Assembly (NCBI GenBank): GCA_964016885.1
Contig: OZ024751.1
Coordinates: 48,484,001 to 48,548,000 of the forward strand
DNA: 64,000 nucleotides
Direction of reading: 5' to 3'
Source of the DNA: Eledone cirrhosa
Taxonomy: Eukaryota
Of this stretch, positions 20,011-51,138 are shown in pieces. Position numbers and translations under genes: made by a program. Position 1 is the stretch's first letter, and every line of letters begins with the position of its first letter. The notes below the pieces were generated by a model. The model was not told the DNA's origin, made no database searches, and was given only the letters and a program-made list of their open reading frames with translations.

Positions 20011-20077
20011 TATTTTATCTGATGAGGACGTACTGTGGAACTCAATTCAGTACCTCTGAAATATGTATAATAAAATA
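20011..20077 (+). ncRNA. type I hammerhead ribozyme motif
   Basis: TATTTTAT-CTGATGA-stem II (GTACTG/CAGTAC)-GAAA-TATGTA-TA-ATAAAATA; 8-bp stem I. Confidence 0.8.
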
Positions 20078-23647: not shown

Positions 23648-23835
23648 TAAATTAGAGTTAAAACTCCAATTGAAACCCTGTAACTATTAAGCTCCAAGTA
23701 TAAAATACTGAGCCGTATAATAATATATATGCAGTAAGAAACACAGTAAACCGTGTGTCTAATATTACAAGAGTTGTAAAACCACATTTGTAATATTAGA
23801 CACACGGTATACTGTGTTTCTTACTGCATATATAT

Positions 23836-23883
<48 letters not shown>

Positions 23884-24009
23884 ATGCGAAAATTAACAAA
23901 GAAAAGACAACAAACGAAAACGAGAGTTTTGGAGTTCTGTGATTTTGGTTTTATCTCGTTTTCGTTCGTTGTCTTTTCTTTGTTAATTTTCGCAAGTTTA
24001 TATATATAT

Positions 24010-24058
24010 GCTTCCTGAAGATTTCATCTGAATGAAACAGTACTAGTCCTGTAGAAGC
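24010..24058 (+). ncRNA. hammerhead motif with disrupted stem I
   Basis: CTGAAGA-T.TTC-ATCT-GAA.T-GAAA-CAGTACTAG-TC-CTGTAGAA; 3' half shared with the palindrome at 35210-35310. Confidence 0.6.
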
Positions 24059-24092
24059 TCCTTCTATAAAAAAAAAATATATATATATATAT

Positions 24093-24294
24093 AACGAAGG
24101 AAATGTGGTAAGGAACCAGGTGGACCATAACGCACCAAAGTACTCAATACTTAGGGTAGTAGAGTGGGTAATAGGAACGAGTAGGACCCCGACGGCTGAG
24201 CTCAAGCCGTTTCGACGGCTAATTCTGGACTAGAATTCAGTCCAGAATTAGCCGTCGAAACGGCTTGAGCTCAGCCATCGGGGTCCTACTCGTT

Positions 24295-24299
<5 letters not shown>
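24093..24299 (-). mobile_element. palindromic half-HHR element family P in (TA)n
   Basis: Palindrome 24171-24299 plus tail 24093-24170; homologous to 33881-34077, 44964-45058 and 49235-49442. Confidence 0.85.
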
Positions 24300-33539: not shown

Positions 33540-33880
33540 GTAAGACAGTATTAATTGCTCATGGATCGCCATTACTACCGTTTGGGATCAAGAGATGTCT
33601 GTAGAACCCCTGTAGAATACCTACCGCTGACACACAACTATAAGGTATTTAAAATAACAGTTCCATATATATATATATATAAATATGTTTCGAAACAGTG
33701 AGCAGGTTTGAAATTAGAAAATAGAATAGCTTTCACCATAGTTTTTGACTTAAGAAATTTTAGTCTGATAATGGGGTTTAGAACCCTCAGATAAATGGAA
33801 AAAGATGAGTATTGACGTACATGTACGTCAATACTCTATTTATCTGAGGGTTCTAAACCCCATTATCAGATATATATATA

Positions 33881-34072
33881 TAGGAAAATATGTAACCCCG
33901 ACGGCAGAGCTCAAGCCGTTTCGACGTCTATTTCTAGACTTAGAAATAGCCGTTGAAACGGCTTGAGCTCTGCTGTCGGGGTTAAACATTTTCCTATTAC
34001 CCACTCTACTACTCTAAGCATTGAGTACTGTGTTGAGTTATGGTCCATCTAGTTCCTTACCACACTTCCTTC

Positions 34073-34121: not shown

Positions 34122-34296
34122 CGAGAGAATTAGTATATTTACCAACATATGCGTACAGATGTACACTAATGCTAGCAAATACATAAGTTATGTCATAGTA
34201 CCTAGGTGGTTCAATGCAGGAGGATGCAGAACAATTATATGAAAGACGTAAAATAAGAAAATTTAAAAAATTAAAAATTAACTTACTAAAATTTTC

Positions 34297-34378
34297 ACTC
34301 CAACTAATTAGTTTCTGTAATGCGATAAAGATAGTTACGCAATGTAACCATCGAGAATTCATTACGTCATCAGGGAGT
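34297..34378 (-). ncRNA. type I hammerhead ribozyme motif, canonical core, long stem II
   Basis: ACTCC-CTGATGA-C.GTAATG..GATGGTTAC/GTAACTATC..CATTAC.A-GAAA-CTAATTAG-TT-GGAGT. Confidence 0.88.
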
Positions 34379-35050
34379 CTATTCTCAGATAAGTCTCCAG
34401 GCAACGCGCGGACACTAGGGACTCATATAAAAATAATAATAATTCGGTGGATGGAACAGCTAGCGGGGACTGAATTCCACAGCACTGAAAAAGTTCACTG
34501 TCTCTGGTCAAATGGCAGATTCTAAAGAATCAATCACGTGACACTGAGGCTAGTCGGAAGGAGTGGGGTGGTAAAATGACAAAAGCCTACTACCAATTTT
34601 AGTAAGTTAATTTTTAATTTTTAAAATTTTCTTATTTTACGTCTTTCATATAATTGTTCTGCATCCTCCTGCATTGAACCACCTAGGTACTATGACATAA
34701 CTTATGTATTTGCTACCATTAGTGTACATCTGTACGCATATGTTGGTAAATATACTAGTTCTCTATATTTATCTCCAAATTATTTATTTATTTGTTGAGC
34801 AAACCTGCCAAATCCACTACTAATTCATTGGAGTGGTAGTAGGCTTTTGTCATTTTACCACCCCACTCCTTCCGACTAGCCTCAGTGTCACGTGATTGAT
34901 TCTTTAGAATCTGCCATTTGACCAGAGACAGTGAACTTTTTCAGTGCTGTGGAATTCAGTCCCCGCTAGCTGTTCCATCCACCGAATTATTATCATTTTT
35001 ATATGAGTCCCTAGTGTCCGCGCATTGCCTGGAGACTTAGCTGAGAATAG

Positions 35051-35132
35051 ACTCCCTGATGACGTAATGAATTCTCGATGGTTACATTGCGTAACTATCT
35101 TTATCCCATTACAGAAATTAATTAGCTGGAGT
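35051..35132 (+). ncRNA. second copy of the same hammerhead, with substitutions in stem III and the cleavage triplet
   Basis: ACTCC-CTGATGA..GAAA-TTAATTAG-CT-GGAGT. Confidence 0.8.
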
Positions 35133-35381
35133 GAAAATTTTAGTAAGTTAATTTTTAATTTTTAAAATTTTCTTATTTTACGTCTTTCATATATATATAT
35201 ATATATATAGTTTTAATATAGATGAGATTCTACAGGACTAGAACTGTTTCATTCTTTAGAAATAAGAATGAAACAGTTCTAGTCCTGTAGAATCTCATCT
35301 ATATTAAAACTTTTATACTCTGCAATGTATTGAGTACCTTACTTACTGTGGTTACCTCCGATTCAACCCGGAATAACGTAC

Positions 35382-35460
<79 letters not shown>

Positions 35461-40227: not shown

Positions 40228-40267
<40 letters not shown>

Positions 40268-40601
40268 ATACTTTGGGAGGGTCATGTTGCCAATATGACC
40301 CTCCCAAAGTATAACAATATCGGTTTCAACACACGATTTCAGATAAAGAATCTTGCTAAACAAATTCAGAAACGAAATATATATATATACATATAGTAAT
40401 AATAATAAATTTGAAGACTAAAATCCAAAGAGGGCTTGATAAGGATAAATATATATCGAATATATAAGAACCGTAGAGCAAATATTTATTAAAATAAGAG
40501 ATTATGTATATATATTGAGTTTCAGATACGGTTCAAAGCAATCCTCCGATACAATTATGTCTACGATTCTCTATGTACTACACAGAGGGTGGGGGGGGGG
40601 G

Positions 40602-44963: not shown

Positions 44964-45058
44964 TATGACCTCGACGGCAGAGCTCAACCCATTTCGACGG
45001 CTATTTCTGGACTAGAAATAGCCGTCGAAACGCCTTGAGCTCTGCCGTCGGGGTCATA
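44964..45058. mobile_element. palindromic half-HHR element family P (palindrome only)
   Basis: TATGACC..TTTC-GACGGCTATTTCT-GGACT-AGAAATAGCCGTC-GAAA..GGTCATA. Confidence 0.85.
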
Positions 45059-48956: not shown

Positions 48957-49014
<58 letters not shown>

Positions 49015-49091
49015 AGTGGTTACACAACAGTTAGTTCACCATACCGAAAACAAGTGTTTCACCTTAGCGGATCCTCAGCTCGTAATTATTA

Positions 49092-49129
49092 CGAGCTGAG
49101 GATCCGCTAAGGTGAAACACTTGTTTTCG
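49092..49129 (+). ncRNA. minimal hammerhead motif (mirror copy 49045-49082 on the minus strand)
   Basis: CGAG-CTGAGGA-T.CC-GCTAA-GG.T-GAAA-CACTTG-TT-TTCG. Confidence 0.7.
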
Positions 49130-49234
49130 GTATGGTGAACTAACTGTTGTGTAACCACTTCTACCTAACTCGTCCCATGGACTGAGTGCTCTACCACTAC
49201 GGATACTACCTTCCAGTGTTCTATCACTATATAT

Positions 49235-49440
49235 ATAGGAACAAGTTAGACCCCGACGGCTGAGCTAAAGCCGTTTCGACGGCTAATTCTAGTCCAGAAT
49301 TCTAGTCCAGAATTAGCCGTCGAAACGGCTTGAGCTCAGCCGTCGGGGTCTAATTCGTTCCTATTACCCACTCTACTACCCCAAGTATTGAGTACTTTGG
49401 TGCGTTATGGTCCACTTGGTTCCTTACCACATTTCCTTCG

Positions 49441-50705: not shown

Positions 50706-51138
50706 ATAAAACGAAAAATCAGTGATGCATCTGGACTTAGTTTATTTCGTGTTACAAATGTTTCGCCGGCATGTAGCTCGAGTCATGGTCCTTGTATGGA
50801 TCTGGCTGATTCTGCTTCTGCGGGTTCTTTTAGGCACGGGTGTTTCGTCCGGAGCAAATTTTATCAAATGTGAGCAAATTTTATCAAATGTGATAAAATT
50901 TGCTCCGGACGAACCACGCGTGCCTGAAAGAAGCCACAGAAGTAGAATCATCCAGATCCATACAAGGACCATGACTCGAGCTACATGCCAGCGAAACATT
51001 TGTAACACGAAATAAACTAAGTCCAGATGCATCACTGATTTTTCGTTTTATTTATAATATCTACACTCTACTCTGATGAATATCGAGTGCTAATTTTGGC
51101 ATACCGCCTATGGAAGCACCATAGCTACCACTATACAC

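Follow-up and report, generated by a model that had tools for sequence, protein, structure and literature searches.

The 101-bp inverted repeat at positions 35210-35310 of the window (a stretch of 64,000 nt from Eledone cirrhosa, contig OZ024751.1, positions 48,484,001 to 48,548,000) belongs, as far as its sequence tells, to the thousands of two-armed insertions left by a Penelope-like retroelement that carries a hammerhead. Most of these palindromes likely join at what appears to be the element's transcription start, and not at stem II of its ribozyme. We think it rather probable that reverse transcription of one RNA was primed from both strands of a nicked (TA)n target, and that the resulting cDNAs were afterwards joined at their 3' ends; a pair of RNAs from the same source locus would explain the data just as well. 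The element is of a known kind, and the single locus at 35210 is an atypical example of an already known structure; the account of the junctions is likely new and testable. The features of the window referred to below are as follows.

35190..35209: (TA)n target, left flank.
35210..35263, minus strand: short (inverted) arm, with the last core base and the whole of stem II, GAAA, stem III, the GTA site and 21 nt beyond; the 7-nt 'spacer' is included.
35264..35381, plus strand: long (direct) arm, from the stem II loop to the usual 3' end of the family, without the CTGANGA core.
35287..35289, plus strand: GTA triplet of the hammerhead half; cleavage would be predicted after 35289 in a whole motif.
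35311..35381, plus strand: 'tail' of about 70 nt, confined to the long arm.
35383..35455: (TA)n target, right flank.
24010..24070, plus strand: solitary short-armed copy from a sister subfamily, in which the first base of stem I directly adjoins (TA)n.
24010-24058, plus strand: type I minimal hammerhead (core CTGAAGA at 24015-24021, GAAA at 24034-24037, GTA at 24051-24053).

The initial annotation had described 35210-35310 as a palindrome and quoted its centre, and it was right on both: the repeat has arms of 47 bp with zero mismatches around a 7-nt spacer (TAGAAAT, 35257-35263), and its fold (z = -21) was equalled by 0 of 200 shuffles. The spacer is not a separate loop but corresponds, in reverse complement, to the 5' half of stem II together with the final core base. 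Counted upstream from GAAA, the left arm therefore extends over 13 nt and the right arm over 6 nt. The left arm has 7 nt without a counterpart in the right one, and the right arm has 70 nt without one in the left; since each arm has sequence missing from the other, this copy is not a simple fold-back. Its join gap is 19, with no stem II pairing at the join, and 89 nt of the long arm past the anchor match a natural copy (L061). The (TA)n target is found on both flanks of this copy and at most loci, and a target-site duplication, if any, would be masked by these flanks in the two-armed insertions. The element sits in (TA)n at the right end of a MITE-like inverted repeat of 360 nt (34236-34595 / 34834-35193, 98% complementary).

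A nearly identical 3' half had been reported at 24030-24056 after a real CTGAAGA core, which we confirm: 26 of the 27 letters agree with 35266-35292. The two loci are homologous beyond this short match, with genome copies of the 24010 subfamily (L022, L073 and L199) having the region of the TATA box or the 70-nt tail in common with the 35210 subfamily. The CUGANGA, GAAA and NUH boxes and stems I and III of the minimal type I hammerhead of Penelope-like elements (PLEs) are all present at 24010-24058 (stem I GCTTC/GAAGC, GAAA, stem III ACAG/CTGT, GTA triplet). In an alignment of 12 copies, 95% of the cells were paired and stem I had one compensatory pair; the search pattern had prescribed stem III, whose pairing there is therefore uninformative. 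Stem II has 3 bp and is closed by U-U (T first in 12/12 and T last in 11/12 aligned copies), and the G10.1-C11.1 pair that closes stem II was not found in these 12 copies. Loop III is palindromic, which suits dimer folding (CTAG in most copies, ACTAGT at 24010), and the predicted minimum free energy fold of the 24010 monomer is not the hammerhead fold. Rfam scored the 24010 motif below the gathering threshold (best RAGATH-1, 13.1 bits, E = 4), and no Rfam family reached threshold in L061 or in another element copy, L118. The claim that one family is seen both as an intact hammerhead and as a palindrome therefore holds for the whole core and for the palindromes; 'intact' overstates a motif with U-U in stem II and such an Rfam score. 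Hammerhead-like motifs of other families occur in the window at 20019 (+), 63671 (+), 33112 (+) and 31773 (-); relatives of those at 20019 and 33112 sit upstream of the ORF in a 24010-subfamily copy, L062.

On their sequence features, the 35210 palindrome and the 24010 copy are ends (pLTRs) of a Penelope-like element with Hydra-clade motifs in its ORF. A 23-letter motif of their family (family 2) has 34,657 exact matches in the 3.0-Gb genome (control 0), and family-2 copies retaining upstream sequence have a TATA box and the hammerhead, and they end at (TA)n on the 3' side. In L061 the pLTR unit directly precedes a frameshifted 2.1-kb ORF with reverse transcriptase (RT) and GIY-YIG, and in L062 it follows an ORF. 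The ORF pieces of L061 (666-2802) span P0001/P0002 end to end at 37-45% identity, and this frameshifted copy has the single short ORF (<3 kb) of Hydra-clade PLEs with RT followed by a C-terminal GIY-YIG. Pfam GIY-YIG was found in L061 just below its cut-off (E = 2e-4, 21.9 bits; cut-off 22.6), Pfam gave no match in the three RT-side pieces or in P0001-P0004, and a PDB sequence search gave none. By eye, L061 contains RWR (a RWK variant), DKT, CNCLNKETC (CxCX5C), CDLC (CxxC) and CMH (CxH), and L062 contains RWR and DKT; an endonuclease CCHH motif is not evident by eye in L061/L062. Six relatives (539-716 aa) were found among 272 candidates. Naiad membership was rejected on the C-terminal position of the endonuclease. 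One old family-2 fragment lies in a larger repeated unit with near-identical flanks (L001, L005-L007, L013, L023, L068 and L071), which inflates copy counts.

The window contains other palindrome families. Family 1 (24171-24299, 33893-33984, 44992-45030 and 49235-49364; 52,348 exact matches genome-wide) follows Hydra-type ORFs (L103, L109, L117, L118). Among 7 of its copies that keep upstream sequence we found no exact CTGANGA and a single one-mismatch match, so this family would have no stem II for a snap-back; the joins of the family fall at an A, and a TATA-like box precedes this position by 29-31 nt in 7/7 copies. It can be described as a Hydra-type family without a whole hammerhead: it keeps an apparent right hammerhead half (GAAAC, a 6-bp stem III with palindromic loop, and GTC; L101-L130), and its tail has a 14-nt motif in common with family 2. 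A third family, at 49012-49162, has 75-bp perfect arms around a 1-nt spacer with a CTGAGGA core on both arms; the join is just upstream of stem I, and one arm extends as a tail. Further short-spacer palindromes, several of them by (TA)n, lie at 23716-23842, 23885-23994, 33807-33836, 40266-40314 and 50706-51051 and may be the pLTR ends of further PLE families; within 23716-24299, four such palindrome insertions lie back to back.

Where the arms join bears on the mechanism offered by the initial annotation, in which, across all families, the cDNA would halt within stem II of the hammerhead and fold back through the pairing of that stem. Such joins do form a real minor class: among 50 listed short-gap joins, counted by hand, 8 have the 12-nt gap of stem II pairing, 15 have a gap of 8, 10 a gap of 19 (9 of these with one whole core) and 17 are scattered, and the 35210 copy itself joins inside stem II. 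This class, however, scales to roughly 100 (an estimate) against at least 4,755 palindromes with CTGATGA on both arms and 0-15 nt between them (control 1), a lower bound because the pattern is stricter than that for the 704 palindromes with an anchor gap of 0-19 (control 27). The first 100 motif matches include 23 inverted pairs, with anchor gaps of 23-59 nt in 21, longer in 2 and <=19 in none, which together with the 704 short-gap against 4,755 both-core palindromes makes the 35210 copy atypical. The genome-wide junction count thus goes against the proposal, most joins lying upstream of the core. Only 4 stem II joins could be oriented, and the short arm is fuller in 3 of them; the gap of 19 at 35210 leaves stem II unpaired, and family 1 lacks an upstream core. 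Stem II snap-back as the general mechanism is not supported, and we consider it very improbable. The idea of a mechanism common to the families survives; its placement at stem II does not, and neither, probably, does fold-back itself.

In 25/26 unselected palindromes, one arm extends 21-27 nt upstream of GAAA and goes no farther than the 5' strand of stem I. Joins at the predicted cleavage site are rare, self-cleavage itself being a prediction: 30 joins, in one subfamily, fall within 15 nt around it, and the count of 90 (TA)n joins at the site is inflated, since of ten loci checked seven were point mutants of whole copies, two were clean cleavage-site starts and one was unclear. Joins over the 5 bp of stem I number 63 genome-wide. 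Most inspected loci came from the first part of contig C1, and the sets of 704, 4,755 and 63 are junction-selected. A minority of long arms begin exactly at the predicted cleavage site (L221-L240, L134, L136, L140), which may reflect occasional ribozyme cleavage or merely stem I microhomology. At L002/L003 and L067 both arms run upstream past the TATA box (gaps of 172 and 403 nt), so longer read-through RNAs would also serve as templates.

In 20/24 rows from three subfamilies (overlapping loci repeat some copies), the core follows the first T of TATAAATA at a distance of 35-36 nt; the other four distances are 30, 39, 39 and 43 nt. The spacing of 35-36 nt places the main join 30-31 nt past the TATA box, and the putative +1 at the join. 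This is the usual distance at which RNA polymerase II starts, and the main join is likely the 5' end of the RNA. The base before the putative +1 was counted by hand in the first 100 rows less duplicates. It is G in 40/94 (TA)n-joined family-2 copies (native C 19, T 22, A 13) and in 18/98 family-1 copies (C 9, A 7, T 64), the latter against 1/99 at an inner control site of family 1 (p = 2e-5). An untemplated-looking G can come from a copied RNA cap, and the extra G would mark the template end and suits such a copied cap. C (9) and A (7) are raised alongside G at the family-1 start, and in family 2 the 3' strand of stem I might also have served as template for the G, which is a confounder. We found no published support for a cap-derived G in the literature searched, and R2 adds untemplated G and T in vitro, so an extra G is not cap-specific (available text of PMC13000458). 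For positions 330-900 of L061 no RNA data set was listed as a match. Contigs of the four sequencing runs cannot reveal transcript starts, and a rise in depth near 470-490 of L061 was not used as copy number.

The fixed boundary could instead be a 3' splice site, or the point at which the folded ribozyme stops RT, with two primers perhaps still making the arms. In both families the boundary is an AG after a pyrimidine-rich run, and the intron of the D. virilis Penelope is described as ending at helix I (in the portion of PMC4209133 available). The joins, however, often retain the AG, no common upstream exon or leader is seen, and the TATA box is kept at start-site distance while the spacer sequence varies; family 1, without the core, has the same boundary. 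We regard this reading as decidedly unlikely.

The arms themselves are asymmetric. Of 87 parsed family-2 palindromes (L181 and L190, with overlapping anchors, were excluded beforehand, and loci without an anchor match are uncounted), 78 are long+short, none is long+long and 9 are unclassed; 19/20 family-1 palindromes are long+short. Short arms end at a few TA-like sites and long arms mostly at one. The stem II loop is the same on both arms in 45/54, where 13 would be expected by within-subfamily shuffling, and these shared loop variants imply a common template for the two arms. The shared loops and the 78/87 long+short pairs are what one RNA with two priming sites would leave. The arms mostly overlap, so that the non-overlapping forms of L1 type are a minority.

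Shared variants would also result from fold-back at the RNA 5' end, with the cDNA 3' end pairing back over 1-3 nt, copying itself and being joined to the other (TA)n end; self-priming on antisense RNA, which is the published reading of PLE palindromes (PMC3846280, in its available text), makes the same predictions. For the commonest joins one can indeed draw a 3-nt loop closed by a G-C pair. A copy cannot, however, hold sequence absent from its template, and in 17/21 listed loci, mostly from junction-selected sets, an inverted tail-bearing (tail-only) arm accompanies a direct arm without tail; such inverted arms occur in both families (in family 1 at L104, L105, L123 and L124). Polarity is mixed. 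In family 2 the short arm extends further 5' in 29 palindromes and the long arm in 24, with 25 ties (the automatic extent scores are noisy, and several ties are mis-scored overlaps), and the four commonest joins are each seen in both mirror forms. In family 1 the long arm extends further in 10 and the short arm in 2, with 7 ties, which fits fold-back and goes against two primers. Fold-back would place the second arm within the first and the long arm always further 5', and this was not found overall, the family-1 polarity being compatible with it. A variant in which later inversion or deletion of the spacer scrambles polarity would give at most 50:50 by random flipping, yet among 20 loci with 5-bp stem I joins, the class that should suit fold-back best, the tail is on the truncated arm in 14 (two of them 1 kb apart and possibly one event), on the whole arm in 1 and complex in 5, i.e. 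14:1 in the 'flipped' form. Long+long products are absent (0/87), and perfect 5-bp stem I snap-back is rare, with the 63 cases given above. Fold-back thus appears unlikely to us.

Palindromes beside (TA)n are hard to assemble, so that an assembly or library artefact (fold-back chimeras) should be weighed, as should MITE-like or microRNA hairpins, given a weak Rfam miRNA match at 35228-35292 (38 bits against a cut-off of 111 bits). An Rfam scan of the whole window gave 445 weak matches, of which the 150 listed are nearly all miRNA models on microsatellites and none is at threshold. The long/short asymmetry is fixed, however, and the arms carry independent mutations; opposite-strand joins appear in contigs of 4/4 runs from three studies (one maybe the source of the assembly), and the arms are directly linked to RT + GIY-YIG ORFs. 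Such origins are extremely improbable.

We come back to priming from both target strands, which explains the classes of arms, the variants common to both arms and the occurrence of tail-only forms. What the sequences display is head-to-head arms in (TA)n, one long and one short, with the same variants and with joins clustered at the 5' edge of stem I. In the proposed route, the pLTR promoter (TATA box, start 30-31 nt downstream) would give a capped RNA beginning with stem I, mostly uncleaved by its own hammerhead, and the GIY-YIG/RT protein would nick both target strands. One 3' end would then prime at the distal TA-like site and make the long arm, the other at an inner TA-like site and make the short arm. 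Both cDNAs would extend towards the 5' end of the RNA, and on meeting the inner cDNA the distal one would either displace it or stop; the 3' ends of both would be trimmed and joined via 0-5 nt of complementarity; at 35210 the join would be more heavily trimmed, falling in stem II by chance. With overlapping arms, strand displacement becomes a necessary step of this model. In the twin priming of L1, two target primers on one RNA yield an inversion with a microhomology join and arms that do not overlap. The two primers and the one RNA are shared with L1; unlike there, the arms here mostly overlap and both reach the RNA 5' end, which gives palindromes.

If this can be generalized, the head-to-head palindrome with a one-sided tail in PLEs would be the trace left by twin target priming on a single pLTR transcript that is capped and uncleaved, a route run here tens of thousands of times with or without the hammerhead and hence with a dispensable ribozyme, and with thousands of junctions recording its steps; we see about an even chance that this wider statement holds. 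The thousands of junctions in this genome separate models of how inverted pLTRs and tails form in PLEs, and the genome has a high-copy Hydra-type family without the hammerhead core. Tens of thousands of short palindromes would also form double-stranded RNA if transcribed. The existing Poseidon assay could test the prediction of two target primers directly.

Inverted pLTRs, one-sided tails, (TA)n targeting, TATA/Inr motifs and minimal hammerheads are already published (PMC8557442, PMC4209133 and PMC3846280, all cited here from their available portions). There, Craig et al. 2021 (PMC8557442) state that an in vitro system is needed to learn how inverted pLTRs and tails arise; self-priming is proposed for the A. 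vaga Penelope palindromes by Arkhipova et al. 2013 (PMC3846280). In the literature searched we found no reading of PLE palindromes as twin priming or as start sites; subscription papers and supplements may hold one.

The element shares with Hydra-clade PLEs, as the available text of PMC8557442 describes them, the C-terminal GIY-YIG, an ORF under 3 kb, RW[K/R], DKT, CxCX5C and CxxC/CxH, and at its ends the (TA)n targets, the pLTR hammerhead, an inverted 5'-truncated copy and a tail at one end. It differs from them in its tens of thousands of pLTR-only two-armed insertions, in a tail of about 70 nt versus 30-40, and in the U-U closing stem II; hammerheads are given there as universal in the clade, whereas here the CTGANGA core is missing from a sister family whose ORFs are of Hydra type. 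The 24010 motif fits the minimal PLE hammerheads (PMC4209133, available portion) apart from the absent G10.1-C11.1 pair. It shares with them the conserved core boxes, a 5-bp stem I, a palindromic loop III for dimers and opposite-strand motif pairs, and is unlike them in lacking that pair and in having a stem II of just 3 bp and a stem III of 4 bp with an 8-nt loop. With the A. vaga Penelopes (PMC3846280, in its available text) it has in common a palindrome at the inverted junction, a tail on one arm and TATA and Inr-like pLTR motifs; those palindromes were read as antisense-template self-priming, whereas the polarity and the tail-only arms here favour two target-derived primers. In vitro, Poseidon cuts and extends both strands, with two RT start sites bounding the tail and uncleaved RNA as the main substrate, and the portion of that paper available (PMC11167929) holds no account of inverted pLTRs. 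Our model shares with Poseidon PAc, as described there, the cutting and extension of both strands, the two tail-bounding starts, the uncleaved RNA and a predicted dimer; the PAc starts lack target homology, whereas the arms here end at TA-like microhomologies.
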